Source: Psammoneis japonica (Eukaryota). Taken from it: a stretch of DNA of 33,100 nucleotides. Below, piece by piece: positions 1 to 32,075 of the stretch. The translations under genes were made by a program, and so were the position numbers. The notes under the pieces are model-generated. The model made no database searches, was not told where the DNA came from, and worked only from the letters and a program-made list of their open reading frames with translations. The DNA is taken from assembly GCA_008632985.1 (NCBI GenBank), contig QPGO01000231.1, forward strand, positions 28,013 through 61,112. Direction: 5' to 3'. How positions within the stretch are numbered: position 1 is the first letter of the stretch; the number at the start of each line of letters is the position of its first letter.

Positions 1-526
1 TGTCATGGCTTGCTGGATGATTCATTGCAAGACTGGCTTTGCTGTCACTCAACCTCTCACTTTTTTTGTCTCACTCTTTGGAGTGAAACATTTGGTGGTT
101 TGTGTGATTTGTCATTTGGCATCAGCATGGTGCTTGTTGTTGTGCAAGTTTGCAGTTTGCATTCACACCTTTGGCAACCCACCCACAGCCATCACAAACT
201 GCCAAGGCAAGTGCATCAATGAGGAGCACAGGCAGCCCAGTGGGATGATCTTTCAGCAACATTCACTTGCTGGTTTAACAATCATTGAAGGCCACCAAAA
301 TGACAAAAAAGTGCAGTCCCACCATGCTGACCATGTTGGCAGCATCCACAATGCAGCAGTGCAAGTTTTCTCCCTTGTGCACAACTGCTGCTCTTTGTGA
401 TTGTCTGTGGGGGTCACATGATGTGTCATTGTTGTGCCATTGTCCAGAGCAGAAATCCAGCATGAGCACAGAAAAAAGGCAAAAAGCACTTGAGTGGATT
501 GACCCAAGCATCAAGCAAAATGACAG

Positions 527-1860
527 ATGGATTCCAACAATGTGAATCAGTGTGGCAACAAACAAAAAAGGCACAGTTTGGCGTTGGTTTGGCAGAAGTC
601 TCTTGGCCTCAACAATCCATGCCTGCCCATGTTGGTGCTTGAGAGTGAAGCAGATCATCTGACAACTTGTCACAAAGAAATGAAGCAGCAGATGGTGGCC
701 AATTTGTGTGTCATGGCTGACACCACACAGCACATGGCACCACAAGAACAGTCTGTTGTGGATGGTGCAGCGCTCACAAGAGGCAGAATGCTGATGACAC
801 ACCAGGCAACAGGATGGCATGCAATGAGGCAACAGTGGATTTCAAAGGTGACTTTGAAGATGAGGGCCACATTGTGGATGACTCACCAACTGATCAGTCA
901 ACAGACTTTGAGTCATGCACTCAGGATGTTGTTGAATGTTCTGACAACATGGAGGAGGAGACCAAAGGGGCAAGTTTTGAGAAGCTGCACTTGTGGAATT
1001 TCCCAACAGCAAGCTCAACAACCCAACCAACTGACACCAAGACACCTTCCCAACAAGTTTTAGCTCATTCACCATCAAAATGTGTCAATGCTGGGAATGG
1101 TGTGCTTGCTGCTGCTCAACTCCTCCACTGCCATCAACAGTGTGAAGGAGGCAACACTGAACAAAAAGCTGCTGAAAACTGTGGGCAGGGACACTGTGAA
1201 GCATTTGTCAAAAAGAGTTTCAGTTGACAAAGCAAGAGCAATGGCCCAAGCCAAAGTGGAAAACCCAGCCATTGAGCCAACTGGATTGTGTGTGTGTTGA
1301 CAGCAAGAAATGTGGACTTGGGCCACGAAGAAGTCCTGGGGCCAGCAGCTTGATTCGCACATGTTGATGCAAAGAATCGGGTGGGATGAGAGGCGCCAAT
1401 GAAACAAGGTCAAACAACAAGTCTAGAAGACATGTCTCACAAAATGAGACAAACCATTGTGGCACAGAAACACAGATTTGTTGGTCTAGAGACAAGTCTT
1501 GTTGGCCCTGAAAGCACTGGTCATTCCACTCATTTGTGTCAAGACTGTTCTGCAGGGAGCCCATGACAAAAGCTTTGATGCTGCAACAATGTTCCAATGT
1601 GACATTTGACAGTTGCGATTGAAACCAAAATTGAACAAAAATGGATTGTGCCACGTGTCATGTTTGACAACACCAAATCAGCATTTTTCAACAAATGAAA
1701 ATGGCTTGGCACAGCACACTGCTTTTGAAGGGTGCCACCAGCGGCCCACACAAACTTTGGATGATCCACTTGTGCCTGTGCTGTAACATCATCAGGCAGT
1801 CCACACTGGAAGTGTGGGTTTGCCGGTGTTGCAGGGCAAAGGCACTGACAACACTTTAAA
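527..1860 (+). pseudogene. Unidentified decayed coding sequence inside the hypermutated block
   Basis: Consecutive overlapping + frames (527.., 814.., 1082..) read as protein-like, including an acidic tract (DFKGDFEDEGHIVDDSP...DNMEEE), interrupted by TGA codons and frame changes. No family recognised. Confidence 0.3.
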
Positions 1861-2384
1861 AAACAGGTCTGTGCTTTTTTGTCATGGTTGAAATCACACT
1901 CATTGCACCATTGATGTCATGGCAAAACAAATGAAGACAGTGAATTGAAGAAGCATCCCAAATGCAGCCCTCACTGAAAGATCCAGCACGTGGAGCCAAA
2001 GTTCATGTCGCCAGTGCCGCCAAAAGCACCGAGATAAAAAATGAAAAGCAATCTTGTCTCCAATGCTCATTTTTTGTCCCCATGCATCTCATTCGTCAAA
2101 TTGACATGTCTTTCAGATTCTGCTCAATTTTTCTTGGAAACACCCAAAATTTCCAGCTAGAAGGAAATTTGACATGCAGCGGTGGTGACCTCAGAGGGCA
2201 ACAAAAGCCACCAAGGCTTGTGGAGAAGCTTTTGAAAAATGAAATTGTGGGCCAACATGTGAATCTGTCATGGGAGACACAAGCAGTGGCAAGAGCTTGC
2301 TCCTTTCATCAACCACTGAGATTAAACTGCCTGGCTCTGCATCCAAAACAGCCACTGCACACTTGACACCAAAGAAGAGCAGAG

Positions 2385-4975
2385 TCAAAATGTGTGTGTG
2401 GTGTGTGTGGGGGGGGGGGGGGGGCTGGAGAGGACAAAGCTGAAGTTGAGACTGAGGATTTGAGAGGCCCAGAGTTGGGGGGTTGCAGTGTGATGGGAAG
2501 AGCCAAAGCAGTCTGGTGAAAGTTGTTTCCAGGCCTCATTGGAGTGGGCAAGGAGGTTGGAGGGTGCAAGAAGTGAGTTGGTGAAGGCGGAGAAGGATGC
2601 TTGGGAATCGGACAGGGAGGATGGGCTTGACCAGGGCAGTTTGGGAGGAAGGGTTGGGATGGAGGAGGAGGCAGTGGTGGAGGTGCCAAAGAAGAAGACA
2701 TGGAAATGGCACCCAATTCCTCCAAGGTGGTTGAAGGTGAAAGGGAGGGGGAAGAGTCTAGCTTGGTTGATGGCATCAATGATGTTGGAGCCATGAGCAG
2801 ATGATGCAAAACTGCCAAGGAGCTTGTCCCGTGCACTGCTGAGGTGAGCCTTGCTTGACAGGTTTTCAGGGATGGGCAAACCAGGTGCAGGAGGTGGGGG
2901 AGCTGGTGGTGCGGTGATGTTGATGGCCAAGAATTGATGGGTGGATGGGGCATTTGGTGGTGTGGAGCGGGGGTGAGTTGAGTGCCGATGTTGGCAGGGT
3001 GTTTGAGGGGGTGGTCATCTGAGATGCCGGCAGGGTTGAGGCATGCTTGTTGGCGAGAGAGGCACAGACCGCAGAGTGGCCCCAGCATTTTGGTGACGGC
3101 GCAGACAGTGTCTCGGATGTGATTTGACAGATGGCCTTTGTGCATTTTAGAGCAGGCAAAGGTGTGATTGCCACATGGGTCTGGGTGGACGTGGCCACAT
3201 GGGCAGTCATGTTGGAGGAGGTTAGAGGAGATGATTGGAAACAGAGCTTCCGCAGAGAAGAAGCATGAACAAGTGCGGTGGGAGCCGTTGGAGGCATGAG
3301 CTTGGGAGAGAGAATGAAGGCACAGGCTTGCCAGTGGAAATGGCAAGGATGGAAGGGCTGGCTGCACAGAAGGATTGGCAAGGATCAGAGGGAGAGTGCT
3401 GTGCTTGTGATGACACAGATGAAAGCGTTGTGAAAGACCCCAGAGGTTTTGGTGTTTGACAGTGTGTGTCAGGGAGGTGAGGGAATGGGAGTCAAACTGA
3501 AGGAGGGTGGGAGCACAGTGGCGGAAGATGCAGCAGAGGGAAAGGGTGGAGTGTGGGTTGGACCATGAGCCAAGAGCAGTGGAGTGGCTTGAGGGAAGGT
3601 GTAAGATGGCACCGCTGCTGAGTGGGATGCTGTGTTTTGTGTGCCGCACAGATCTGATGAGGGAGGTCACAAGAGCTGGGACGGCAATGGCAGAGATGTT
3701 GTGACAGCTGGTGCTGCCTGAGGAGACAGGTGAGCTGGTGATGAGTTTGGCAGCAGAAGGGAATGGATTGGTGTGTTTGGTTGGGTGGGCAAGAAAATGC
3801 AGGGAGTGGCCAATGATTTTGTCAGCAAAGGGAGATGTCCATTGAAAGGGGAGTGGGAGGGTGTTGGATTGCATCAGGTTGCAGCATGCATCAGCTGCCA
3901 GAAGGTGGGTGATGGAAGGGATGGAGCATTTGTGGAAGAGTGTGCTTTGTGTCTGTTTGTCGGTTGGGTGGGTGGCAAGGCGGCGAAGGTCAGTGGCAAA
4001 GGAGGTGACCTTGTCATGGAGAAAATTGAAGGCAAAGGTGGGTGAGCCGATGGGTTGGCCGAGAAAGCAGACGCCGGTGGTGATTTCAGGTTTGATGTGG
4101 GGGTTGTTGTCGCGGGGGTTGAGGAAGGCAAGGGCTTCAGAAAGAGCTGCAGCATTGGCGGGTGGGAGGCGGTTGTTGGGAGAAGTGCCGGTGATGGATG
4201 CAAGGTTTTTTGTCTTGGAGGCATTGAGCTTGATGCCAAATTGGGGGCCGCAGGTGGAGATTTGCTCAAGGAACCAAGGAAGCTGAGAAAAAGGAAAGGA
4301 AAATGTGGGTGTTGCAGACACATGAGGAAGTGGCAGATTTGGAGCAAGGAGAAAGTCAGTGATGCAGCTCATCGTTAACAGGGTTGAATGCGTGGACCAG
4401 AACAAGGCAGGAAAAGACTGAGCTGAGGGGGCAGCCTTGAGCAAATCCTTGGGTTGAGAAAAGGAGGACCATTGCAGGTGATGGTAATGACACCAGCAAG
4501 TGTTGGGATCTTGTCAGAGTGAGTCAAAGAAAGGCAGTGAAGTGTGGCATTCATCGGAGTTTGCAAGGGTGTCACGGCAAGTGTCACGGGAGCATTCATC
4601 GAAACAGTTGGATGGGTCAAGGAAGAGGAGAGCTTTTGTTGGTGCAGAGTCCGGTTGAAAGAAGCATTTGATGTTGGTGCAAGCAGCATTCACAAGGTGG
4701 TTGAGGCCACCTTTGATGCCAACTCCGAATTGGCCAGAGAGCAGGAGGTTGGAGGCAAAAGTGGTGGCAAGGAGGAACATGACAAGGGTGCCAATGATTC
4801 TTTGAAGGGCCATGCCAACACCAATTGGCCAGAGTTTAGAAAGGTTGGATGAATCCTTGTACAGGGCAAGGAAGCAGTTGGATGAAAAAGCAGGTTTTTT
4901 TTTGATGTGGGGATGTGCAGGTTGGTTGGATTGGAGGATGGAGGGAGGGACAACAGAAAATCTTGGAGTTCAGAG
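2385..4975 (-). mobile_element. 5'-truncated, decayed non-LTR retrotransposon with RT and C-terminal restriction-like endonuclease (CRE-like RLE clade)
   Basis: Minus-strand motifs in order, across frameshifts: LALYKD..SKLWPIGVGMALQR (=LRPIxVG), QFGVGIKGG, LDPSNCF..CSR (=LDxxNxFN..SR), GFAQGCPLS, MSCITD (decayed YxDD), GPQFGIKLNASKT, GVCFLGQPIG, zinc knuckle CPCG...DPCGNHTFAC...H, HIRD, HPANI (=RPADI), AINIT (=AIDIT), PFTFNHLGGIG. End coordinates are approximate. Confidence 0.88.
2391..2424. repeat. (TG)n microsatellite plus G homopolymer at the 3' edge of the retrotransposon
   Basis: tgtgtgtgtggtgtgtgt followed by a run of about 16 G. Confidence 0.85.
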
Positions 4976-7509
4976 CTTGCAATGCTTGCAAATTTGGCTG
5001 ATGTCTTTGGGGTTGTCGCAGCTCGCATCTGCACTGCACAAAATGCAACAGTGAAATTCCGTTGGTTTCCTGCCACAATTTCCTCTGTTTTGAAATGCAT
5101 GGAAGGGACATTTTGAAGATGTCTAACAGCTTGCAGGGCTTGGAATTGATCCAAAGCAGGATGGCATCAACTCATTGCTTGGCACACCATTTTCACATGG
5201 CAGCCAAGTCACGTTGGAAAAAGACAGAATGTTGAGTTTTGGTGACCCTCAAAACAGCCCTTCCATGACTTTGTGAAGCTATGACATGTCTTTGCTTGCC
5301 TGGTGGAGAATGTGCATGATGTCTCCATTTGTCCCAGCAACAATGCCTTGCAAATGCAAGGATGTGAGTGTTGCAGTCTGAGTCTGCACAACACAAACAA
5401 GCAGTTTGCAAAAGAAGAGTGCAAAACTTTTCCAGCACACATGCATTGGATGCATGCATTGTTCAAGCAGAAGAAACAACACACACACAGTTGTGTGTTG
5501 TTGCAAATGTCAATCTTGTGTGACAATCGTGGATGCCTGTGAATGGCAGATTGATTGCACAGAACTGATCAGAAGTCTGAAATTTCAAATGCAATCAACA
5601 GATGATGTTGACACACAAGGCATCAATGTCAGTTGCATCTGGACAATCTGTTGTCATGATCACATTCTCCAAAAGGCCTTTGCTCTGTGGGAGCAGCACA
5701 AACACTTTGGGCCATTGAGAACTTGTTCAGAGAAACCCAAACTCACAGAGCAAATTTCAGTCTCACAACTTCCACTTTTTGTGATTTGTTCCACTTTTGT
5801 TTGCACTTGTTCTTCAAGTGCAGCGCACATCACTGTCCTGTTCCCAGCATTTTTGGTTCTGCTTGACTTTTTCCAAAGAAGACGGCCACAGAATTTGTTG
5901 TCACATCTTTGTGGTGCAACACTCTGAAGCTTGCTTTCTGCAATTTCCATTTCAGCATCACTTCTTTCATCTCTTCAGCTTTGCCACCACTGCACATGCA
6001 GCAACAACACCTTTTCCAGTGCTTCTTAAAATCATGTGGGTGGGAGACTCTCCATCCACAAAGCACCATGGATTTGTGGTCTCCAAAATGACATCCACAG
6101 GAGGGCAAGAAATGCAAGCACAAAGCTCATGACAAAAAAATGTGGCAACCTCTGATCCAGGCTTGGCTTGAAGCTCACAGCTCTGTGGCAGATGAGCTGC
6201 ATGCTTCAAAGGAGAAAGGGACAACAAGGATTGTGAGATGAGAGATGAAATGTTGCACATGCATGCCAGTGTGCCTGCAGCCAATGAACTCAAACAAACA
6301 AAAGTCAGTTCAAGGACACTTGCACTCCAAATGTCTTTGGCAGGCACCAGGGCAAGGAGATCCAGGCCTGGAGTGTTTTCCCATTCTCCAGGGCAACAAA
6401 GCATGGTTGCCATCATGTGTGTGAACAAACCAGCAAGCACTTGAACAGACCAACTGCACCAGAAAGTTTTGAGGCTCACAATCCATGAGAGGCTCTTGCA
6501 CATTGACTTGCCTGCACTGCCACAAGAAAAAAAAAGAATGGCACCATTGGAGTGGAGTCATGCCCAATTTTTGTGGCATGTCCATGGCTTGAATGTGAGC
6601 TGATTGTGGCTGCATTGGCTCCAGATGATGCTCTGACCATTGCAGGAACTGGACAAATGCTGCAAAACTCATTTTCTTCTTCTCTTCAGGCACCCTGTTC
6701 TTTGTTTTCAGTCTGTGTTCATTTTGACCTTCATTGTCTGATTTTCGGTGCTTCAATTTGTTGGGATTGGTGATTGTGATGGCTCCAGGGTGCAGGTGGC
6801 TGAGGTGCAGTGCGCTGCTGCACACTTTTGGGAGAATTTTTGGAGCTTGGGCTTCAACAAGATGTCACAGTTTGAAGTTTTTTGTGTGCCCATTTTTGAT
6901 GGCTGAGGACCAACAAGGCAAGCTTGCAGTGACATGAAGTTGTCAGCCCTGGCACCTGTGCAAAAGATTTGGGACTCACTGAGGTTGTGTTGTGCTTCAC
7001 AACAGCAGAAAATTCCAGTCAATGCAATGACAGTGCACCTGACTGCACCCACTGGGCATTTGGTCTTTGTCCATGTGCAATCCATGCTGTGCATTGGGCA
7101 AAGCCAATTTAACAAAGAGTGGCACCAAAATGACACTTGACAAACAAAGCAAGGATGTCAACATGAAAAAGCCACAGACTGCCTTGCATTTTGTTGGACA
7201 AGCACGTTGTCATTCTGTTCAAGGTGGGCACACTCCTAAAAAGGCATTGTGTTTCTCTCTGGATGGAGCATCAACATTGTTGCCCCTTGTGTCATTTTTT
7301 GCATGGTTGCTTTGTTTCACAGCATCCATGCTTGACCAAGACAGACAAAAAACTCAGGCACTCTTTTGTTTGTTTGGCAGGTGTCAGCATAAATGAACAA
7401 GCTGGTGGCTTCACCATCACAAAAACAAAAGAGCTCCATCTTGTGGCAGCCCAACACACTCTTGTTTTATTCGGGGCAGGATCCTCCATGAGTTGACAAG
7501 CCTGGCATT

Positions 7510-8340
7510 CACATTGACGCACCAAACAACATGCCAAGAGTGCCAACACAAATGCAACACAGAACCGTGTGTGCCACAATGAGCAACAAACCATTTGTGG
7601 CAAAGGCACCCATGTTGTCAGACAGATGAGATCATTTGCAATGATTGTGGTGTCTCAGCAGTCTCACATCAACTTGACTCACTCACATGACAGCAAGCAA
7701 CTTGCCATCAAAAAACAGTGCAGATGCCCAAAGAATTGCCAACGTTGTTGTTGGCATGATTTTGTGAATGCTTGCATTGATTCAAAAGAGAGTGCAGGGC
7801 ATGCAGCAGTGCCATTGTGCTGTGATGAAGAAATCAGACTGCACAACCCAATGGGGCACAGAGAGATGGTGCAGAGGACAGGAAAAGGAAGCCATCGTCA
7901 GCGCCGTTTGCCCTCGGGGTGTTTCCCAGCTCAAATGCCTCTGCACATGAGTGGTGAAGGCAATCTTGTCAAAGAAAACAAGTGAGAAAGTGAAACAAAA
8001 GCACTGCATGATTGGATTGCAACAGAGAGCGAAAACGGGCATCGAGCCGTGTGGTGTGTCAGCGCAAAAATCTGTTTTTTTTTTTCCATCTTGCGGGGTT
8101 GTCAGCCGATTGCCTTCCAACAAGCAATGCATGTTCATTCCACATGACAGCAAAGACCAGTGGACAGCGTTGGCGTTGTTAAAAGGATTGCATCTGGTCT
8201 AAAAAGCCGCTCCGATTCATTCTCATGGTGTGTGGTGTTTTGAGTTTCGAGGTGTGATACGCAAACGTGACTGATGAGTCCCGTATACGCTCATAAAATC
8301 GCGCGGTCTGAGCTCGTCTCGCGCGTCTCAGTCGTTACCG
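7510..8340 (+). repeat. Diverged ~0.85-kb segmental duplicate, copy A (hypermutated); paralogue at ~18255-19010
   Basis: Colinear matching blocks, e.g. acattgacg (7511/18255); tgcttgcattgattcaaaagagagtgca vs tgcttgcttgatccaaaagacagtgta; ttctcatggtg; acgtgactga(a)tgagtcccg; ctcagtc(g/c)ttaccg. Confidence 0.85.
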
Positions 8341-10043
8341 TAAAGTGTACGTAGGACTTAGTAATAATTTTGAAAGTACCAAGATCTCACGAATGTTCTA
8401 CATACGAAGTGATAGTATCGATTATACAAAGACACACAAAAATGATAGTGTTTGAGAAAATTAGCAACGGTCGGTCACGACACAAACAAAATCTCTCGAA
8501 AGCTTGCTCTTCGTTCGCTTCACAACTCGTTGTCTCGCACGATGTGTTGTTGTTCGCCAAGCAACGATTGCCGCGATCGCCCAGGATGGCTCGCCCTTCT
8601 TGCGGATAATAGAGAGCTAGCTCTTGTTTGGTGTTCCACAACTAGTCATGCTTGTTGACGTGTTGTCTCTAGGTGGCGTAGGTGTTGCCAGTTAAGTCCA
8701 GAGGTCGGGGCAAATCGAATGCGTCTCTCCGGCCTTGAGTCCATGTCACTCTCGTGTCTTTGAGCGCAGGAAGTTGCCTGTTCGCTTGACCCGTCAGGTC
8801 ACGGCTGTTGAAATAGACAGCAGCGTTCGTCTGTGAAGCAGCAAAAGCTCGCCAAGCAGATCATGCCGTTGACGGAACGCGGGTTTGGGGTTCCGTCGTA
8901 TCAGTGACATGATACGGTAAGTCTTCACTCGTAGGGAGTGTTGATTTAGAACGCGGTTGACTCGCAAGTTCTCTTGTTGTTGCCGTAGTACGTCCCCCCT
9001 TTTTCTTTTTTTTGGATGGTAATCCACCCGGAAAATAGGAGAAAGCTTGAGCGCCATCTCTTGGTGGTGCTCTTGAGGCAATATACCCTACGCAACCGAT
9101 TCAATTGCGACTTTTGAGAATGGTGTGCTTCAATTGCTTGAAACACCCCTTGAACCTTTACAATAGAAGTAGAAATACTAAAAGTATGATGTAGCAATCT
9201 TTCTTGCATGTAATTTATTCCGTACGTGTGTCAATGGACTACGATGACGGTCGTAGCGCTTGAGATGTCGTTGCATATCTTGATTTCATCGTTTTTGTGT
9301 TTGTACCATGCTGCTCTCTTTTTTTAGATGGGTTCCACGATGGGGTATTTGTTACGGTATGCCCCAACACGATATGTGTACTGGACTGTTTCTGCCAGCG
9401 AGTTTTGCTGTGGTACTTCTCAAAACGCGGCAAGTTGCGATACGATGAAGAACGGAGTCTATGTTGTGAACAATGATAAATCGAGTGATGCTGACATTAT
9501 TTGTCATTGTAAGCTACAGTACTAATTGTTGTAGGTGTAGACTACAATCCGGTGCCGACTACTCGCATGTTTCTGCTTGCTACGGCGGCAGCCTGCAATG
9601 TAGCAAGACCGGGAATGATGTGGAAGGAGTTACCAGACGACATTCCTCGCCACGACTATTTCCCCCGATATGGTCCTCTGAGTATGCTCCTGTTGACGCG
9701 GAATTCGGTTCGAGCATAACGAACGAAGTTGATTTCCGCACCTATGTTTTCTTTCTTGGACGTGCGTGACTAGTCGTCGGAATGCCAGGGCAAATCTACG
9801 GGGAAGCGAGCTGGAAGAAAGAAAAGGCCGCTCGTGTCGTCGGCTGGCAACAAAGAATACGGTAATAAGCCCCAGGTACGGTCTGCTTGGGCATAGCCCG
9901 AGAAAACAGCTAGTGAAAAGTAAAGAATACTGTAGGTAGCAGCCTATATGTCTTGTGGGAGCTCACACTACTTTGTCGACATGACAGTACTCTCTATAGT
10001 CAGCATTAGGCATGTCCTGCACCAACTTCTTGTGGAACGATAA

Positions 10044-13000: not shown

Positions 13001-15630
13001 GAGAGATTTCTCGTTGAGGCAAAGGTAATGGTGACTCAATCGCAGACAGCCGCGGCGACACCTCGGCGAGCGACAGGCGCTTCTGTGGCAGAGAGAATTT
13101 CGACCGTACCGCTCTCACTGCCTGGATTGCTTTTGGATTCCACTGAACATATAAACTCGAAAATGTAGCATCGACAAAATTAAGCGCCACGGTTTCATTC
13201 TCTTTCCGAAATTGTGTAATGTCAACAAATTCAGTACAGCCAGAGAAACTGTCATCAAAGGCACCAAGCTTCTCTAATTCCGCAAGAACATTGCACTCGT
13301 CGTTTTCCGCAAATGACGCTGCTGGTTTTGGGAGGTTTGAATGAGCCAACAGTCGCTGCTCCCATGGAAAGTCACTTGATAAACGGTCCAAAGTCCAAAA
13401 CCATCCCGTTTTCAGGCGGCAAGAAGCACCTCGATCGCCCGTCGAAGACGCAGACGATGACACGGAAACCAGGTGCGCCTCTAAACCGCCCCCCGTCATA
13501 AGGGACGGCACATATTAATAGCAGGTGCAACACGATAGCGAAGTGCAGAACAATAAGGTCATAGAGACCACCTTCAAGTCCTGTGGTTTTCACTCATGGT
13601 TGTTGCTTTCGAAGTGTCTTGAAACCCAGCAGACGACCTCTTCAAGATAGAGCTCGTCACTGATGTTGATCTCGCATCGCGGCCTCCGTCATGTTCGACC
13701 TCATCGAGAATGGACATACCGCCCGCATCGACGACAGTTTTAACACCTCTCTTTGCACTTACATCTTCTATAACATCTCGCCAAGTACTGAGCACAGATA
13801 CGGTCCTTTTGACCTGAGTTGGAGATATACGAAGCGAATCCGTAGGTAGAACGCCACACGTACAGGTACGGGGCGCTCGTCATTGGGAGCTATTTCTAAC
13901 CCCATTTTGAGATTGAGTGAGAGTGGCTCAATTACAGCATCGGCCTGCTCTTCTTAAGGCAACTTGAGTTTTGTCATAGGGTCATCCCAGTTCAACTGAC
14001 CCGTTTTCCCTGTAACAAACATTAGATTAGACACCACAAGTTCGCTATAATCCTTGAGAGGATCCGGTTTCGTAGTGCTTCGCTTCGCTTTACTTGAGAA
14101 CCATTCCATAACACTTTGCGGCGGCTCAATCTTGCCGTATTTTAAGCTGAAGTGCCCCAAATCGAAGACAAGCACATCGGTAGTCGGATCAACACAACTT
14201 TGTGGAAGGATGATGATGGGGGCGAAGACGTCGAAATCAACCATCCAGATAGTATTCTTCTTCGTTTTACTTTTCCAGGCATCTGCAAATGCAGTAGATA
14301 GCTGGTCCGACACTGCAGCACTTGCTGCCCTCGCGGCTGCGGCGGTTTCGTCAACAATGTCCACCGCCCCAGCCTCCATAGTATGCGACCCGGCGTCATA
14401 AAGAGATCAACCGAACCACTCAAAGACTTTTCTAAGAGTGGGTTCTGCCGAAAGTGTTGCGACGCGGATACTGATACGGTATTGGAAAGCGAGAAGAAGG
14501 CCTGTACATCCTTCAGAAATACCGATGAGGCCACCAACGAAAAGCTGCCATGCGCAGAATCAATTGTTGAATGCACCAGTGGTTGAAGCCCCCTCCTTTT
14601 GTGACGAGTACCGCAAGCTACTTCGCATGACAGTAGTAGGGAACAAGCTCAAGGTCTCATCCCACGTGTGATCAAGTCGATTTTTGAATGCACCCAGGGT
14701 AAACTTGATGTCGTCAAGCTTTAAATTTGTTGAGACTTCCGATTCAGAGGTTTGCTCGAGACTAAATGCTTCGAGCTCTTTCATTTCTTCTACTGTCAAG
14801 AATATTGGAGGATCTTCCTCGTCCAGTGACACATCTTCGCCCTTTGAAGCCCCCCAAAACGACGGCAGATACGACTTTTTGGCGCCCTATTCTGAAACCT
14901 TTTTCGTCGACTCGTGTTTTTTCTTTTCTCGTTCGACTTGTGCATCAGTATAATGTTCCGCCGTGTCATTGCCTTCCAAAGAGACAACCCGAACTTGTTC
15001 TGTGGTTATCACGGTCTCCACTTCTTGTATCGACAAAAGGCTTCAACCAAGGGCAAGTCTCATGATGAGCATGGCGCTTGTAATGCGATAGGGCCTCTAT
15101 ACTTGTTGCGTTTTTGAAAAGCTGTGTAAAACTCGACCCAAGAGCGCCTGCCAATGCACCGCACCGCATATCTCCACCATTCTTTGGCTGTTTCTTCGCT
15201 AACCCTATTTAAGGGACGATACTCTGGAAAAAGAGGTATGGCAAAGCTCTGAGAATGCCTTATGCCACCGCAATCTTGTTGCTCAACTCCAGCTGATTCC
15301 GCGACAGGAACATTGAGAGCTGTGAGAGCTCAGAAGACTGCAAATATCGGAAATCGATACACTCGAGTTGATCGAATCAGAACCATCCGATTGTCGCCCT
15401 TCCGGGACAGACTTTGGGATTGAAAAACTGTAGGTCTCATCATCAAGACATGCTCAAAGACATTGAATGCGCAGCACTTTGCAAAGGAACGACTTGACGA
15501 CATTCTTGCTCGTTATCGTGCGGTCTACAAAACTTCTGTTTCCATCCTTGTCGGTGGTAACGAGAGAAAGTGAAGACAAAACGACGCCAGCCGAGCATCC
15601 TGCACCTTTGACACATGCAGACTCTCCAAA
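10044..15630 (-). pseudogene. VPS13: VPS13-family lipid transfer protein, truncated at both ends, with frameshifts and stops
   Basis: Chorein-N-adjacent SAGVVLSSLSLVTTDKDG...KVLRIQCL; IWMVDFDVFAPIIILPQ...VLVFDLGHF; SLYVQWNPKAIQA; DYFD...MWQQLLGKPW. In-frame TAA at ~13954 and single-base losses in short homopolymers near 14400 and 13870. Confidence 0.85.
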
Positions 15631-16312: not shown

Positions 16313-17958
16313 ATGGACGAATTCAAGAGACGCTTCAAAGAATACACTCCTGAACAACATCGAGCAGTGGCTGACAGGTATCTGGCCACAGCCGACAAAC
16401 ATCGAGCCGCTGTTGGACAAGCAAAAACCTCTGCTGATCTGAAAAGAGCTCAGAGCAAAACTAATTATCACAACCGCCTTTCACGGATGCACAAGGAAGA
16501 AGCCAAGAGGAAGGCAACCCTGCAGCGACGACGGACTTTGCGTCACGTGAAGAGCGAACAAGAAGCCGCTATGCCCACGAACAATCCCACTTCAGCTTCT
16601 AAAGCCAATGTAAATGCGAGTGGCGGGGATGCCTTCAGCACTCCTTTTGTTGCCCGTAGCCGCAGCACAAACAATGATATACCGAGCACCGGAGCATCGC
16701 CCGCAGGAGTGCGAATGTCTTCTACGCCCATAAATGCTGCCGGAGTGGAACTTCTAATGAAGTCTCCTGTTGGCCAGAAATCCATGGCGCGTGGTTACAC
16801 TGATCCGAGATTGCAGTTCCAAGCCATGTTGCTCGAAAACTTGAATAAGCACGGGGCTCTCTTGGACAAAAAGGCCGAGAAACAGGCGGAACAGGAAGAG
16901 ACTGCCAATCAACGAATCAACGTTGTCCTGGCAGAGCAAAAATCATCTGTGAATTGGCTGGGCAACCGAGTGCCTTTCTTGGAGTAAAGCGAAAGATGAG
17001 TAACGTCGAATGCGACGACAATGAAAATCAAGATCCGAACTCGGCTTCTCCTTTCTTGGGATCTCATTCACAAGTCGCCTCTCCCCATGTGTTGGGAAAC
17101 CCAAGTGCAAAGCGTCGACGATGCGTTAAGGCTTTGAGGCCCATGCTGGTGGACTCTCCGCCGAAATCCGAAATGGAGCCTACTGTGAAGAAGGAGCTTT
17201 TCCCAGGATCAAACAATTCTTTCACTGGCACGTCATCAGGATTTACAGCACCTTCACCTCCCACTGGAACCCCTTCTGCATCGACTTCGTTTGGAGCTGC
17301 TACCTTTGCTTTTCCTTCTTCTGCTACAAATTCTACTGGAGGAGCTACGACTGTTCCTGGAGCTCCTGCTTTCCATGTAGACATAACGAATCGCGGCACC
17401 CCGAACAGCAAACGGATTCGCAAGCCAAAAGCATCTGCTTCACCAGGAGCATTTCCATTCAGCATGCATCAAATCCATGCTCCTCTCACCATGTCAGCAC
17501 CTCAAGTCCCTGGCCACCAAGTTCCTGCCGCCCAAGTTGCTGGCGGCGGCCAGTCTAATGTGTACGATAACGGCAACGTATTATTTGCTCAAGTTCCCGC
17601 TGGAGGACCGACAGATCAAGTCAGGAAACCAAGTGTTGAAGAAGTGCGTATGCGGGATTCGCAAACCTTTGAAACCCAGTATTCTGACCTCGTTCAAAAT
17701 GCACCAAAGTCGGTAGAAGCGGACATTATTGTGAAGGAGATTGATGAATGTAAACGAGAGCTTGTAGCACTCGTAAACCGAAGCGACTCGCTCAGCAAAG
17801 ATGAATTTCAAGAGTTGTACGGTATTCTTCAGTCGAATCGGATGGACGCAATCAACTTCGATTCCTTCGTTGGCACTGTGGAGGACATGACAAACCTCAA
17901 GATGATCCGCAAGATTCTAAACCACTATGGCGATTATGTAGAGGACCACTACTGGTAA
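16313..17958 (+). CDS. Orphan low-complexity (S/P/A/T-rich) protein, split into two overlapping ORFs (16313-16987, 16954-17958) by a probable frameshift, or two adjacent genes
   Basis: Two long same-strand ORFs (224 and 334 aa) overlap by 34 nt with no obvious GT-AG intron at the junction. The first has a helical basic N-terminus and the second a helical acidic C-terminus. Confidence 0.55.
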
Positions 17959-18210
17959 GGAGAGGCAACCAAATCTTTCATCAATGGGAATTTTCGGTGC
18001 ACCTGCCATGGGAAGTATAAAACTTCTTAGTCGGCACGCCTGCCCTGAGAAGTTTGAAACTTCTTAGTAGGCACGCATAAAGCACACGCGGTGCTTCCAA
18101 CCGCTACTTATGAATGTAAACTAAAAATGTTGTTAGTCTAGATTGCGTTTGAAGAATTCTGGTTCTACGGTACATTTCGTCTTAAAAGCGTCCTTCGCGC
18201 TGCTCGGGGG
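17895..18210 (+). repeat. Direct repeat copy 1 (last ~20 codons plus 3' flank of the orphan gene), containing two tandem 37-nt hairpin units
   Basis: Aligns with 20530-20820 (about 19 substitutions and 3 small indels by eye) and more loosely with 20975-21150. Confidence 0.92.
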
Positions 18211-18254
18211 AGTCATCCCGATTTTTACCGTGAGAAGTCGAGACGACAGATTGG

Positions 18255-19010
18255 ACATTGACGGCTAAAAACGCAGTGTAGAACCGTAATAAAGCGATAA
18301 GTACCTAAAGCTTTCAATAATGAGTAAGAAAAATGCAAAATAGCAAGAAAGTGTCGTTAGTTGCTTGCGTTCGAGGTGAATATCATCATTTTTCGCGGCA
18401 GCAAGTTGTGAGCTCCACAAATCATACACTTACCGTTGTCTACCATCAAATAATGCACACCATAATCCATATTATCAATGAAATCGACCATCCGTTGCTT
18501 GCTTGATCCAAAAGACAGTGTATGACACGCAACAGCCCCATTTCGATTGATGCAGAAATATCAGCCGCAGACAAATGGTTCAAATGTCGACATGAAACTA
18601 AGAGCCGGTGTTCCTCGTTAGGGATTTTAACATGGTCGAAATGCTCCCTATATAAGTGTATGAAACGAGCGTATCAAATAAAAAGAACGAGTCAGTGACA
18701 CGAAAGCGCAATGCGATTGTATCGCGACAGCACACGAAAAAGAGCAGCGGATGGTGATGCAATTACAAAATCCATTTTTTGACCTTTCGATTGAGCAATT
18801 ACCTTCAAACAATCGATGAAAATAGTTTCTATATGATGGTAGAAACTATTCTAAAGCCCTGCTGTTGTTGAAAAGGTTTGGCAATAGCATGAAATGCCGT
18901 TCCGATTCTCATGGTGAGTGGCGTTCGGAGGGTGTGCGCATACGTGACTGAATGAGTCCCGCCTAACTTCATGCAGCCGCGCGCTCGCTCCGCTCGCCTC
19001 AGTCCTTACC
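18255..19010 (+). repeat. Segmental duplicate copy B (unmutated); upstream/promoter region of the 5-phosphatase gene
   Basis: Colinear with 7510-8340, retains CG and TA dinucleotides, and ends about 30 nt before the ATG at 19039. Confidence 0.85.
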
Positions 19011-19038: not shown

Positions 19039-20413
19039 ATGACAACAACAACAATGGATGAAGTGCTACCCCTGATTAATTCAATTTTCGTGGGTAGCTT
19101 CAATATGAACAACGAGGACTTATCATACAACGATGCTGCACGTTGGTTGCAAGAGGCGAAACATGCCGATCTAGTCGTGCTCGCCATGCAGGAATGCGGT
19201 TCATGCCGCTTGGACGGCTCCATGCCGTTGCCAGAGAATCAACAACAGCAAGAAAGTTGGTGTCGAAAACCTCAGCTTGATCGAAGCGATACTGTTCTCC
19301 ACAGCATACAAGATGCATTGAATGACGGCTACAAAATTGTTGCTGACGTTGCCATGGGCGAAAGCGCGACTGGGAGAAAAATTGCTATTGACGGGGAGCC
19401 CGATACGGAGTGGTATGGATATATACGAATGATTGTTCTGGCAAGGACAGGTATGTGAGAAGACCGTTACTTTCGATTCCGGACGTGGTCTTCATCTCAT
19501 ATTTCGATAACTTCTTGTTCACAAATCCTTCTTTCTTTCATGAAGAACTCGCAGACAAACTATCTCCGCAATGCAGGACGCTGGTCTGTCCTGTTGGGTC
19601 CAAGTCGTCGGTTGATTCTCTTACATCTCAATCACCGGATTATCCTGTTGATGCGAGTCCTGATAAGGGTGCCGTTTGCGTAGCTTTAGGAAGCGACTTG
19701 TTGCTTGTGAATGTTCACCTCGCTGGTACAAACCAGTATAATGTGAACGAGGAGCACTTTGATGAAATCAGAAAGCACCAGTTAACGCTGATTCATGAAA
19801 TGTGTCAACCTTACGGGCATTGTATTGTTGCTGGGGACTTTAATTTTCGATGCGAAATCCATCCGAATGAAAAGAGTCGCGGCGGACTAGACTTTCAGGC
19901 TGTCCACGACATTGTCAAGTCAGCTGATTGTGAGGCTATTGGCAACTTGTATCGTAAACATGATCGACTTATTCAGCTCATCAATAGCAATGGCGATACT
20001 GTGATCCCGTTACTTTTGAAGGACACAAGTGATTCCTTTTGTTACGGATTCAAGGATAATGAGTACGTCATGCCTACTTTCACTTTTACACGGGATCTTA
20101 AGCGAGAAGAGAAGAGCGGCAAGAATTGCCGATCCTACTCAGATAAGCGTACGCCATCGTGGACAGATCGGGGTAGGTGGGCTCAGTTTCAAAGTTCCCC
20201 TTGTTGGTTTTCCGTGTCCGTAAGGTCTCACCAACCAGTCGCTCTCTTTCTTGTGCACGCCCTCAAACAGTTCTGTTCTCGAACTCGTTGCGGGACAAGC
20301 AGGGATTTTATATCATATCCGTCAAAACTCACCCCGACATTGTAGTAAGCGACCATATTCCGGTACATTGTCTATTCTCTCGCTCGAGAAGCACTTCAAA
20401 TCAGCTGGACTGA
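19039..20413 (+). CDS. Inositol polyphosphate 5-phosphatase family protein (IPPc/EEP fold); exons 19039-19450, 19555 (or 19546)-20172, 20271-20413
   Basis: Family motifs IFVGSFNMN, DLVVLAMQE, KGAV, NVHL, GDFNFR, HDRL, PTF, RTPSWTDR|VL, SDHIPV. Two phase-1 GT-AG introns (GTATGT at 19451; GTAGGT at 20173 to AAACAG at 20270) join the ORF pieces in frame. Confidence 0.92.
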
Positions 20414-20529: not shown

Positions 20530-21195
20530 CCTCGAGATGATCCGCAAGATTCTAAACCACTATGGTGATCATGTAGAGGACCACTGCTGGTAAGGAGAGG
20601 CAACCAAATATTTCGTCAATGTGAATTTTTGGTGCGCCTGCTATGAGAAGTATAAAACTTCTTAGTCGGCACGCCTGCCCTGAGAAGTTTGAAACTTCTT
20701 ACTCTAGGCACGCAGAAAGCACACGCGGTGCTTCCAATCGCCACTTATGAATGTAAACTAAAAATATTGTGGTCTAGATTGCGTTTTGAAGAATTCTGGT
20801 TCTACGATACATTTCTTCTTTTCGGCAAGCCCTCTTGCGGATATCATTGCTACGTTTGCCTTGAGAAGTTTAAAATTTCGTAGTCGGCACGCAGAAAGCA
20901 CACGCGGTGCGTTCTTCTCGCTTCGCGGGTGCCAAAAAAGTTCGGTGAGTCCTCTAGCGATGTCATTGCTACGGCTGCCTCCAGAAGTTTGAAACTTCTT
21001 AGTCGGCAAACAGATAAAGTACACACGGTGCTTAAACCCGCCACCTACGAATATAAATGAGAAATATTGCAGTCTAGATTGTGTTTGAAGAAGTCTAGTC
21101 CTAAGGCATGTCTCTTCTTAAAAGCGTCCTTCGAGCCGCGAGCGGGGGGCTTTAGTTGTTATGGGATAGCTGTCAAAAGTTCGCCGAGTCCTCTC
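20530..21195 (+). repeat. Direct repeat copy 2 with internal amplification: four 37-nt hairpin units and repeated flanking modules
   Basis: 20530-20820 matches 17895-18183. Hairpin units start at ~20638, 20675, 20856 and 20975. A ttcgg-x-agtcctct-like module recurs at ~20821, 20941 and 21180. Confidence 0.9.
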
Positions 21196-27120: not shown

Positions 27121-29125
27121 ATGATTGCATATATTGCACTAATCATACTCTTTATGAATCTCCTGCTACGTGTATTGCACGGTAAGCAGAACCACGGCCG
27201 AATCATCAGCGGTTTCCTTTGGAATTCGTGCGTTGCTGTGAACGAGATTCGATGCACGATTCACGTTGTCGTGTCCTTTGTCCTTGCGGTCTGTAAAGTT
27301 CTCCTCACTTTATATGCTGTGATATTCATATACTTGGTGTTGAAGTCAATTGGCAGTTATGTCTATTACTTGTTCCGCCGAATTATGGACATTGACGACC
27401 TGACGACTCTTCTTTATGATCGAGCGTGCGATGCTGTTGCGGCTATTCTTGCGGTTGCAGTGGTTGTATGGACCATGTATTATGCCGTATACGTTCCCTT
27501 GCGATTTGTGTCCCCATGGCTGCTACTCTTGAAGCGTAAGCTATTTTGTCGCGGTCGGATCAGATGGAGACCGGACAGAATGCTGCTTCGAGACGTTTAC
27601 GTTGGTGACGCTCCTCCAGTCCCAACCGGTGTGGTTGCTCCACGAGGACTTCGGATCCCTCGATACACTCGTGTAATACCCGTATTGGATAAACAACGAT
27701 TGGCTGCAGCTCTGCGTGAGTTTGAATGGAAGCAGTGACCAATGCATTCGTGAATGTCAATCGCACCCAAGATATGATCACTGGCGTGGATGGGAACTGA
27801 CTCCAGCGGCCATTGAACCAGCTGATGCCATGGGCAACAATCCTACTGTGGTGGAGGATGTAGCTCCTGAAGCTGATGATACTGTTGATCCTTGGGATGC
27901 CTTGAACGAGCCTGCTGTGGATGTTGACGATGCTCCAGTCGATGTGGAGGTGGGCGTTCCTGTTGCCGTAGTAAAGGAACCTGTGGCTGAAGCATTAGAC
28001 GATTCTGCAGTAGCTGTTGACGACGCCAAGCGCAAAGTATGTGGTAGCGGTCGGATCAGATGGAGACCGGACCGAATGCTTGTTCAGGGCATTGACGTTG
28101 GTGACTCTCCTCCAGTCCCAACCGGCGTGGTTGCTCCAAAAGTTGTTCGACATCCAAAGTATACGACAAAGATTCCAGTGCTATCGGGTCAGAGGTTGAA
28201 CTTTGCTTTGAGACGAATCGACGAGAAGCATGACAAGCTGGCTCGGCAGTATCGTCAGCGGCATTTAGAGTGGCTGCCGGATGAAGACCTGATAAAGAAT
28301 ATCTTTGTCGGTGACCTTCCTCCAATCCCAACCGGCGTGGTTGCTAAACCTGTTCTTCGACGTCCACGTTACACTCGAGTTATTCCCCTCCTGAATGATC
28401 AGCAGTTGACTGCGGCGCTGCTTGAGTTTGACTTGGAACAAAACCTATACATTCATGGATGTCGAGCTCACCCAAGATATGATCATTGGCGAGGATGGGT
28501 ACGGACTCCAGCGGCAATTGAACCGGTCGAGGCCATTTTCGGAGTTGCAGTGGTTGAGGAACCCATTGCTGATCCTGCTATTGCTGTTGATGATGATCCT
28601 GTCACCGAGGAGGAAGTTGTTCCTGTGGATGTAGTCGTTGAAGGGCGTGAGGAGCCAGACGATGCTTTGGATGCTCCACCAGACGAGGAAGTACCGATGG
28701 ACGATTCAGAGGATCCTGTGGGCGTCGGGTTACTGCAACACGACCTTGTTCCAGCAGGAGAGGGTGAAGAGGAACCCTTGGGGGAAGTCGTTCCGGCAGC
28801 TGACGAGGAGCCTGATGATGCCTTGAATGATCCACCAGATGTGGAACAACCGATGGACGATTCGGAGGAACCTGTGGACGACGGGTTTGTGCAACATGAC
28901 ATTATGCCAGAAGGAGAGGATCAAGACGTGGAGAACGCGGAGTTGCCAGACGAAAACGTCGATCCGGTGGACATTGTTGTTGTTGCAAGAAACGAGGAGA
29001 AAGTAGCCCGTCCTGTCTCTTTGAGACGCTCGCCTAGGCTCGGTGGAGTAACGGGCAGCGTCTTCCTTTCGTCTAATACTGGGCGTGTCGTGCGTAGATC
29101 CGCAAGGATCATGAGTCGCCGCTAG
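27121..29125 (+). CDS. Orphan protein: N-terminal hydrophobic helices, three ~55-aa repeats, acidic linker, C-terminal RRSxR motifs; one frameshift at ~27736
   Basis: ORFs 27121-27738 and 27716-29125 join if one extra T after AAGCAG is removed. Repeat 1 then reads EFEWKQ-DQCIRECQSHPRYDHWRGW, matching repeat 3 EFDLEQNLYIHGCRAHPRYDHWRGW. Confidence 0.7.
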
Positions 29126-30689: not shown

Positions 30690-32075
30690 TCTTACTTGCG
30701 TAGAGATTGGCGGCAAGGAAGTTCACCGTTTCCGAAGTGTCGTGCGGAGTGAGGCAACGCATGTGGTCGACTCGACAACGCGTCCTTGAGTAAAGCCTTG
30801 GATTCCAACAGCGCACGGCAATAGTGTAATGCGTTCTGAACAATCAGTCACGGCGGGACGCTGAGCTGAAGCGCTGACCTCGGCCATTTTGACTACACCA
30901 CACATGATAAGCAGCGTATCGGACGTCATTTTCGTAATCACCAATGGGTCCACTAGAGGCAGATCCGCAGCCCTCAAACACAAAAAGAAGCTAGAACGGT
31001 TCACAAGACATCTTGCGCAAATGATCTCATTATCTGACTCGTCCGGAAGAACGGCTTCGGAGTAGACGGTCTGGGTTGCATAAGTACCGTCGGCCAACAC
31101 AACGTTCTTGGTAATCATTTTGGGAGCCTCTCCTTCTTCGTGCTTCCCTTCATGGTTGTCTTCCTTGGCAATCAAGAATAGGGTCGGACTTAACTGTTCC
31201 CAAAATAGTTTCAAAGGTCACCACTATGGTTTCCTCCGTATCCGATTTTTCACCAAAGATCGAGAGGCATACCGGTACGCACAGAACGTTGCTAGAAGAA
31301 ATGTCCTCATCGGCACCCAACAACTTGGGCAAGATGGATCCTGGCAGTGCGGGGTACTGTTTGACAGTGGCTCGTGACAAAATAGCAACCTACATGCCAC
31401 CATCAGTGTCCAAAAAGTCCATAAAGGTAAAAACAACCGACTCGGCAACATCAGCATGTTCCGGTAGGCCATGCCTTAAGCTTCCGCCATGGTGAAGTCC
31501 TGATGTTTGAGCCGTCTTAGCAATCTCGCGCTTGAGCGTCGATACCACATCAGCGATATTACGAGGGGTGACAATGTCCATTACAACATCGAGGACCTTC
31601 TTGCAGATATCAGCGCTTGGGGACCTAAGAGCACGAGGAATGTCCATGAGCAGCTCCCGCAAGATCTTGCAATGACGAGTCTTGAGGTCTCCCCCAATCG
31701 CTCAAGAACAATAAGCATGATATTTTGTCATTCTTGCTATTCAGAAAGTTCGTAAACGTGACAGCGGCAGCCTGAGTGGTAGTGGGCGCCAAAGAAAGCG
31801 ATACTAGAGTCCAAACTGCCTCGTAGGACACGGCAGCAGACGTGCTGGAAAGCATCTAACACAAGACCCGGACAAATCGTGACTTTCGGGTAGGATCACG
31901 ATGACACATCTTACAAGTTAGTTCCAGAACAAGCAAGGCGAATCAATCTCCGCAGCCCTATTTGCCAACGTCGTCCATGTTTTGGGCCAAGAACTGAATG
32001 GCCAAATTCTCCGACTGACTGAAAAGCACGAGAAAAGCGTTTCTCCTCGCAGCCATTTCTGCTTCGAATGCTTGG
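30690..32075 (-). pseudogene. COPB1: Coatomer subunit beta (beta-COP) fragment with stops, frameshifts and a large internal deletion
   Basis: ARRNAFLVLF..SENLAIQFL; LLVLELTCKMCHRDP..KSRFVR; AAVSYEAVWTLVSLSLAPT; MDIPRALRSPSADICKKVLD...TPRNI; VVLADGTYATQT; DCSERITL; then a jump to C-terminal MRCLT...FLAANLYA followed by a GTAAGA donor site. Confidence 0.9.

Follow-up and report, generated by a model that had tools for sequence, protein, structure and literature searches.

Hypermutation directed at TpA steps has been described in the rhizarian alga Bigelowiella natans, where its targets are integrated DNA of giant viruses and virophages (Mettrop et al., bioRxiv 10.64898/2026.01.13.699255). According to the main text of that preprint, A>G or T>C changes, all on TpA, make up 230 of the 231 de novo mutations recorded in two hypermutable regions of viral origin, at a de novo rate ~1000-fold above that of the genome. 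Clusters with low TA and high TG/CA carry the long-term footprint of the process, and so do transposon-like genes. An ADAT2-like adenine deaminase is proposed there, and amphioxus and Trypanosoma ADAT2 are cited as active on DNA. The words "context", "trinucleotide", "flanking" and "CpG" have 0 occurrences in this main text, and its supplementary mutation table may hold the base after A. Full-text searches for such a process in diatoms yielded no description other than the B. natans preprint. Here, we analyse a stretch of 33,100 nucleotides from Psammoneis japonica (assembly GCA_008632985.1, contig QPGO01000231.1, positions 28,013 to 61,112 of the forward strand; hereafter the window), the left part of which is a domain where TA has been almost completely erased, at rates that depend on the bases flanking the TA.

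Several other processes invite comparison. Repeat-induced point mutation (RIP), as found in Neurospora and other ascomycetes, consists of dinucleotide-specific C-to-T transitions at CpA (or other CpN), with a gain of TpA and of A+T, and basidiomycetes show a RIP-like decay of TCG type. In methylated DNA, CpG decays by deamination of 5-methylcytosine. Polymerase eta makes A>G errors at WA (W, A or T), most strongly at TA. For adenine deaminases, a published table gives the context 5'-ACG for TadA/ADAT2 and 5'-UAG for ADAR (PMC10661471), and a YAC context (Y, pyrimidine) is reported for the TadA-8e variant A48E (PMC13109818). The B. natans preprint, too, brings up RIP when discussing its results (bioRxiv 10.64898/2026.01.13.699255).

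In positions 1-8201 of the window, the observed/expected ratio (o/e) is ~0.05 for TA and 0.16 for CG, while TG/CA is raised 1.6-fold. Bin by bin (1 kb), TA o/e is 0.01-0.07, CG o/e 0.04-0.35 and TG and CA 1.4-2.2, as against a TA o/e of 0.39-0.87 and a CG o/e of ~1 in the remaining ~25 kb. As shares of all dinucleotides, TA falls to 0.32% from 4.18% in the background and CG to 1.04% from 5.99%, and CA/TG rises to 22.4% from 14.1%; the gain in CA/TG (+8.3 points) thus about equals the summed loss of TA and CG (8.8 points). All other dinucleotides remain at 0.83-1.19 of background, with AA/TT at 1.10 and AC/GT and AG/CT near 1, and A+T is stable (51.7% in the domain, 52.0% in the background). 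Only TA and CG are affected, and TA goes to TG or CA. The right boundary is sharp: two TA are found in 8001-8201 and 13 in 8258-8400, across a transition ~50 bp wide. No second strongly TA-depleted 300-bp stretch with raised TG/CA occurs in the rest of the window.

Forty of the domain's stop-free frames reach 88 aa or more (61 reach 70 aa), and none of the 40 gave a usable Pfam match; neither a reverse transcriptase nor any other element protein was recognisable among the frames by Pfam. The 13 long open reading frames (ORFs) gave no usable Pfam match either, weak ones (E 0.02-0.1) being disregarded, and an Rfam search of the domain found no match. Just one tandem repeat, a short one, is present.

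These properties resemble those reported for B. natans in that TA is turned into TG or CA within sharply delimited, putatively silent or foreign-looking stretches, with low TA and high TG+CA as the lasting footprint. Both the TpA-to-TpG/CpA changes and the delimited region with normal neighbours are found here; as to a foreign target, no Pfam family appears in the 40 frames, and contig depth shows some parts of the domain to be multi-copy. The locus differs from B. natans in its near-saturated erasure (o/e 0.05, compared with a Rho of 0.45 given for the virus region there) and in that CpG is lost as well, which the main text of the preprint does not describe. The likeness to RIP lies in transitions that come as a burst, are specific to a dinucleotide and, in the manner of a genome defence, ruin repeated or foreign DNA where it stands. 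Unlike RIP, which changes C to T and makes TA, the process here removes TA at constant A+T.

The 26 TA steps that survive in the domain (Table 1) are concentrated in one flanking class. The sequence-only reading had tallied 18 YTAR (R, purine), 7 mixed and one RTAY, and our recount gives exactly these numbers. Its chance expectation of about one quarter YTAR was too high, since among the 1039 background TA (8256-33100) only 166 are YTAR (16%), 554 being mixed (53%) and 319 RTAY (31%). Against a share of 0.16, 18 of 26 has a binomial P of 1.9e-9; in 200000 random samples of 26 TA from the background, the YTAR count never exceeded 14. The YTAR share is likewise low in TA-poor parts of normal DNA (26/167, 15.6%), in 24 background 1-kb blocks (3-29%) and in 19 metagenome loci of other eukaryotes (1407/7347, 19.2%; 15-24% per locus). 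The background therefore has no YTAR excess of the kind seen in the domain, and the bias that had been noticed there stands. It holds in each third of the domain (7/9, 5/8 and 6/9).

The process makes transitions only, which preserve the purine/pyrimidine class of every position, so the step classes still report on the ancestral sequence. Y[YR]R, R[YR]Y and mixed steps number 55.7, 55.7 and 63.0 per kb in the domain and 56.9, 57.3 and 64.4 in the background. As these densities are equal to those of the background, an odd ancestral composition is not the cause of the YTAR bias. Chance, or an artefact of base calling or assembly at modified bases, can be given hardly any credence either. It is true that the one sequencing run found to contain the stretch (0.62 of sampled words) may be the window's own source sample. 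However, the contigs of this run match 2574-8300 piecewise with 3-11 differences each (one piece has 58), the P of ~1e-9 is reached against several backgrounds, and a paralogue of the domain's right end, discussed below, shows real divergence. Moreover, 38 metagenome loci (259 kb) around homologues of a neighbouring gene contained no TA-erased window. No look-alike stretch was found in the other genomes scanned.

Two side observations concern the survivors themselves. Five of the 26 (1424, 1487, 2759, 5124 and 8200) share the hexamer frame GTCTAR, which may reflect chance, a longer protected context or a repeat remnant. When contigs of the above run were aligned to the window at 80% likeness (944 pieces), they showed, among the 40 of 779 variant places listed, G for A at 277 and 2324 (TTAA versus TTGA), T for C at 254 (CA versus TA, within a TTAG frame) and, at 4486, C where the window has A. 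Alleles or paralogues that vary at YTAR sites could account for these differences.

To size the flank effect, we took the 24.8 kb of flanking DNA in the window as the ancestral state, both for expected counts and for the direction test described below. Survivors then amount to 18 of ~55 expected YTAR sites, 7 of ~183 mixed sites and 1 of ~105 RTAY sites, corresponding to -ln survival of 1.11, 3.26 and 4.66. The additive prediction for the mixed class is 2.89, and survival is thus close to additive over two independent half-sites, one per strand. A Poisson half-site model with two rates gives k(TAR) = 0.57 and k(TAY) = 2.59, a ratio of ~4.5, and improves on a single rate by 38.7 in twice the log-likelihood (2dLL; 1 degree of freedom). 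Four per-strand maximum-likelihood rates (TAA 0.31, TAG 0.89, TAC 2.52, TAT 2.67) raise 2dLL by no more than a further 3.5, which gives the ranking TAY > TAG > TAA the status of a trend only. By tetramer, survival is highest for TTAA (0.53), CTAA/TTAG (0.27) and CTAG (0.26), falls to 0.07 for ATAA/TTAT, 0.06 for GTAA/TTAC, 0.05 for GTAC and 0.02 for ATAG/CTAT, and is 0 for ATAC/GTAT, ATAT and CTAC/GTAG. About two thirds of the YTAR sites were lost too, so the preference is a rate ratio and not an absolute rule. The flank preference is real, and its size (4.5-fold) depends on the model.

This dependence matters if the 26 TA are not survivors but new sites, formed by ordinary G>A or C>T changes in the abundant TG/CA, in which case their context would reflect supply. 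The domain does hold 1836 TG/CA sites, each one transition away from TA, and the CA/TA difference at 254 shows that sites vary. Nevertheless, only 418 of the 1836 (22.8%) stand in Y..R flanks, and 18 of 26 then has a P of 6e-7. A removal that is still active would need the same TAY preference, only stronger, which changes the ratio and not the conclusion. We consider a new origin of the 26 sites unlikely.

Survival of YTAR does not by itself tell which neighbour is read. It fits equally well if the mutator prefers a pyrimidine following the A (TAY), if it prefers a purine preceding the T (RTA), or if the duplex R-T-A-Y is recognised as a whole. The sequence-only reading had concluded that TAY is preferred and had overlooked RTA as an equal predictor. 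Mixed sites separate the three: TAY preference predicts YTAY>YTGY together with RTAR>RCAR, RTA preference the opposite, and duplex recognition a 1:1 outcome. We mutated bootstrapped flanking DNA in silico, with 500 simulations per model, and compared the products with those of blocks 1-2400 and 5000-8202, where the untouched positions resemble the background in composition. In these blocks, YTGY and RCAR together stand to YCAY and RTGR as 424 to 292 (424/716, a share of 0.592). Simulations with no preference gave a share of 0.532 +/- 0.016 and reached 0.592 in 0/500 cases, those with a 4.5-fold TAY preference gave 0.589 and reached it in 211/500, and those with a 4.5-fold RTA preference gave 0.478 and reached it in 0/500. 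When a fitted, non-significant CpG context effect was added, the share was 0.557 with no preference (9/500) and 0.611 with TAY (428/500), the observed value lying inside the range of the latter. A class-based likelihood over three blocks, in which the apparent strand skew of block 2400-5000 is absorbed by a block parameter, put the best TAY ratio at 3-20 in 100/100 background bootstraps. Gains of TGN and CAN trinucleotides, by comparison, did not separate products of TA from products of CG.

Product direction, a line of evidence independent of the surviving TA, thus favours TAY over RTA. A mutator reading the purine two bases before the A leaves the same surviving class (simulated survivors 11.8, 5.2 and 0.4), yet it drives the products in the opposite direction, to shares of 0.478-0.502, and in the class model a ratio of 0.25 falls short of the best fit by ~36 in 2dLL. 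We regard such a mutator as highly implausible.

Several results, nonetheless, weigh against the strand-wise TAY explanation or limit it. The share for the whole domain is 0.564, between the neutral 0.534 and the 0.588 simulated for TAY, and block 2400-5000 shows no directional bias (130:135). The no-preference model with the CpG context effect still reaches the observed share in 9 of its 500 runs. Across 20 loci of other organisms, the direction share ranges from 0.335 to 0.613, and in the window's own normal DNA (four 5-kb blocks) from 0.541 to 0.571; as the share varies among organisms, the test is valid only insofar as the flanking DNA represents the ancestor fairly. Polarisation against the unmutated paralogue sends only 6 of 11 mixed-flank sites with concordant flanks the TAY way, which fits random choice and has a P(6 or fewer) of 0.03 if the true share is 0.82, in a test of low power (33 TA sites, 11 of them usable and mixed, in copies only 75% alike, so that many "ancestral" TA are doubtful). 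If the 26 TA were an equilibrium between re-creation and removal, the TAY/TAR ratio would be ~11-19-fold. Finally, TAT and TAC are mutated equally fast, which sets the process apart from TadA, whose natural target is UAC(G).

Some of these same results are what one would expect if the palindrome R-T-A-Y were recognised as a whole in the duplex, by an enzyme or through the structure of the TA step, and a random strand then changed. Duplex recognition predicts the survivor classes equally well, agrees with the paralogue count and with the even block 2400-5000, and leaves the whole-domain share only 2.1 standard deviations over the neutral expectation. Conversely, the neutral simulations that it implies fall short of 0.592 in all or nearly all runs, depending on the CpG context effect, and every bootstrap favours a ratio above 1. 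We therefore give duplex recognition a rather small chance. The strand-wise TAY reading is the best supported one and is not settled; the flank effect and the product direction speak for the preference as originally claimed, the paralogue and the undirected G-rich block do not.

Block 2400-5000 deserves a separate comment, since it is rich in G and purines (Table 1) and its top strand carries TG twice as often as CA. Strand-polarised editing, ~90% on the top strand, was considered for this block and rejected. Purines that belong to no Y-R step lie beyond the reach of the process and are equally G-rich there (59% G), and the corrected share of conversions to top-strand TG is 0.44; the skew is thus ancestral and implies no strand polarity. 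A (GT)n run followed by a ~16-nt G run lies at 2385-2436, on the left edge of the block. The long minus-strand frame at 2312-4513 is a by-product of the missing TAA and TAG stops.

The loss of CpG behaves differently. As in the CpG decay of methylated DNA, CG has become TG/CA, but this decay explains no TA loss. CpG survival is flat over purine/pyrimidine flanks (21/~121, 44/~266 and 20/~104), and CpG loss lags at the right margin, where the CG o/e is 0.16 in 1-7880 and 0.76 in 7881-8255, although TA is erased in both. The loss of TA runs ahead of that of CpG there, or reaches further, and the loss of CpG is separate from it. Among CG tetramers, survival is lowest for TCGA (2/~51) and TCGT/ACGA (5/~85), at 0.04-0.06, and highest for CCGG, GCGC and CCGC/GCGG (0.26-0.31). 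A T-C-G preference of CpG loss is possible; it is driven by the G-rich block and is non-significant in the other blocks.

The right end of the domain has an unmutated paralogue in the window (Table 1), whose 33 TA sites correspond in the domain to CA in 13 cases, TG in 10, CG in 2 and other steps in 8 (CA or TG in 23/33). Paralogy extends to ~8300, past the domain boundary, and the mutated state stops 50-100 bp before homology ends. An ordinary blastn comparison between the domain and the remainder of the window returned two short pieces only, and the other matches of the purine/pyrimidine-coded blastn are noise, E-values being invalid for a two-letter code. Much of the domain is at single-copy depth in the contigs of the sequencing run, and two parts are multi-copy: the piece at 5541-5817, with the highest depth, and 2494-3047, also raised (~2000-2457). 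Both belong to high-copy families. A loose-end consensus at 5623 reveals copies elsewhere in which CG and TA persist at positions that read CA in the window.

Of the two paralogous copies, one is mutated and the other normal, the boundary falls within homology, and the affected DNA mixes single-copy and multi-copy sequence. This speaks for targeting by chromosomal domain, that is, silent or methylated chromatin, over targeting by homology. It also differs from RIP, in which both duplicates are mutated along the duplicated length, although at ~75% purine/pyrimidine likeness the copies are too diverged for a fair test of homology.

The explanation that we consider probable is a local, strand-wise mutator that converts TA to TG or CA with a preference for TAY, and that may act through TadA/ADAT2-like deamination of DNA. 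Under this proposal, a locally targeted process would rewrite TA across a putatively silent, partly repeated stretch of a eukaryotic, ochrophyte-like chromosome. On each strand separately, the A of 5'-T-A-3' would be changed to G, at a rate ~4-5 times higher when C or T comes next on that strand than when A or G does, and a TA reading TAR on both strands would be lost last. Chemically, adenine in DNA could be deaminated to hypoxanthine by an enzyme, a TadA/ADAT2-like polynucleotide deaminase recognising a T before and a pyrimidine after the A, and this enzyme would be directed to silenced or methylated chromatin. CpG in the domain would take a separate, slower, flank-indifferent route, presumably deamination of 5-methylcytosine.

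A deaminase of this kind is suggested by analogy. TadA, ADAT2-ADAT3 and the TadA-derived editors turn A into I, read as G, at an A directly preceded by T or U and followed by C, and here only TA is lost, with AA/TT at 1.10. The deaminase match first proposed from the context of the surviving sites agrees in the T before the A; after the A, both TAC (2.52) and TAT (2.67) are fast, TAG (0.89) and TAA (0.31) are slow, and what is favoured is a pyrimidine and not C specifically. A further difference is that the natural substrates of TadA and ADAT are tRNA loops, whereas the target here would be chromosomal DNA, on both strands and over kilobases.

Editing of a retroelement's double-stranded RNA by an ADAR-type enzyme, fixed in DNA by reverse transcription, would likewise turn A into G; ADARs favour a U preceding the base they edit (PMC10661471; bioRxiv 10.64898/2026.01.13.699255), and parts of the domain are indeed multi-copy. 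The ADAR motif, however, is 5'-UAG (PMC10661471), with G after the A, whereas TAG is mutated here ~3 times more slowly than TAY (0.89 versus 2.5-2.7). ADARs act on RNA and are not restricted to UA. In the domain, AA is not depleted, both strands are mutated about equally, no element protein is recognisable (Pfam, 40 frames), and the altered stretch spans 8 kb in which single-copy and multi-copy DNA are mixed, ending within a homologous segment. We judge this route highly improbable.

Error-prone repair synthesis of the polymerase eta type, or unrepaired TA damage in poorly repaired chromatin, could find a starting point in the CpG lost from the domain, which could initiate repair patches. Contrary to what WA hot spots predict, WA in general is spared, AA/TT standing at 1.10 of background, and the unchanged step classes give no sign of many transversions. 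Moreover, TA loss is near-complete (0.05) beside normal DNA, with a boundary of ~50 bp, and the margin that has retained its CpG has lost its TA. Such an origin seems quite improbable, if somewhat less so than RNA editing.

Table 1. Features of the window (positions 1-33,100; a full stop marks features recorded with no strand).
Feature	Position	Strand	Remarks
TA- and CG-stripped domain	1..8201	.	open at the window's left end; complex sequence
Right boundary of TA-erased domain	8202..8257	.	normal TA density back from 8258
Right margin, TA erased, CG largely kept	7881..8255	.	TA 2 sites, o/e 0.08; CG 16 sites, o/e 0.76
G-rich, purine-rich block	2400..5000	+	G 39.8%, C 13.7%, purines 64.7%
Surviving TA steps (26)	276..8201	.	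18 YTAR, 7 mixed, 1 RTAY
TTAA (7)	276, 1857, 2323, 4376, 6027, 7110, 8180		YTAR
TTAG (4)	1061, 3148, 3223, 4837		YTAR
CTAG (4)	1424, 1487, 2158, 2759		YTAR
CTAA (3)	5124, 7237, 8200		YTAR
Mixed-flank survivors (7)			GTAA x3, ATAA x2, CTAT x1, TTAT x1
Sole RTAY survivor	T at 4860		GTAC
Mutated copy of 18217-18930	7501..8244	+	purine/pyrimidine-coded blastn, 759 columns, 74.7%; transition-tolerant alignment
Unmutated paralogue of 7501-8244	18217..18930	+	bin 18001-19000: TA o/e 0.73, CG o/e 1.28
Highest-copy piece of domain	5541..5817	.	summed contig depth 10194, ~130-290 in most bins
VPS13_N fragment	13957-14406	-	E 5e-8
Two direct repeats	17895-18183 and 20530-20820		~290 bp, 92% alike
Exo_endo_phos2 ORF	19392-20342		best named homologues in Triparma and Bolidomonas, 33-38% identity
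Adaptin_N fragment	31393-31701	-	E 3e-4

To the right of the erased domain, the VPS13_N and Adaptin_N fragments mark ordinary eukaryotic genes. The homologues of the Exo_endo_phos2 ORF point to an ochrophyte alga, an organism different from B. natans. The VPS13-like gene is on the minus strand, and its 3' side would face the domain boundary. The two direct repeats bracket 2.3 kb that hold the unmutated paralogue and the Exo_endo_phos2 ORF; they differ from each other by ordinary changes and not by TA-specific ones, and additional decayed copies lie at 20671-21146. Further to the right, 27532-28926 contains diverged internal repeats (70-83% identity, units of ~120-230 bp) in a long ORF at 27677-29122, which has no Pfam match and, queried as ORF 27716-29125, no usable match in the protein atlas, and is probably a gene for a repeat-containing protein.

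Hypermutation of silent DNA at TpA has already been reported, in one preprint and one alga. TpA-directed hypermutation has so far been described without an enzyme in hand, and the main text of the preprint gives no neighbour preference beyond the T (bioRxiv 10.64898/2026.01.13.699255). It is conceivable, and we suggest it only tentatively, that ochrophytes possess a chromatin-directed DNA adenine deaminase for 5'-T-A-Y-3', reading both neighbours in the manner of TadA, as a genome defence that stands beside cytosine methylation and is separate from it; it might be of the same kind as that of the rhizarian B. natans, and hence old and widespread. The three-base fingerprint, a T before the A and a pyrimidine after it, ~4-5-fold and on either strand, argues against ADAR-like and polymerase-eta-like routes and provides a concrete test for candidate enzymes. 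Finding such an enzyme would reveal a natural editor of adenine in chromosomal DNA and an A:T-directed counterpart of fungal RIP.

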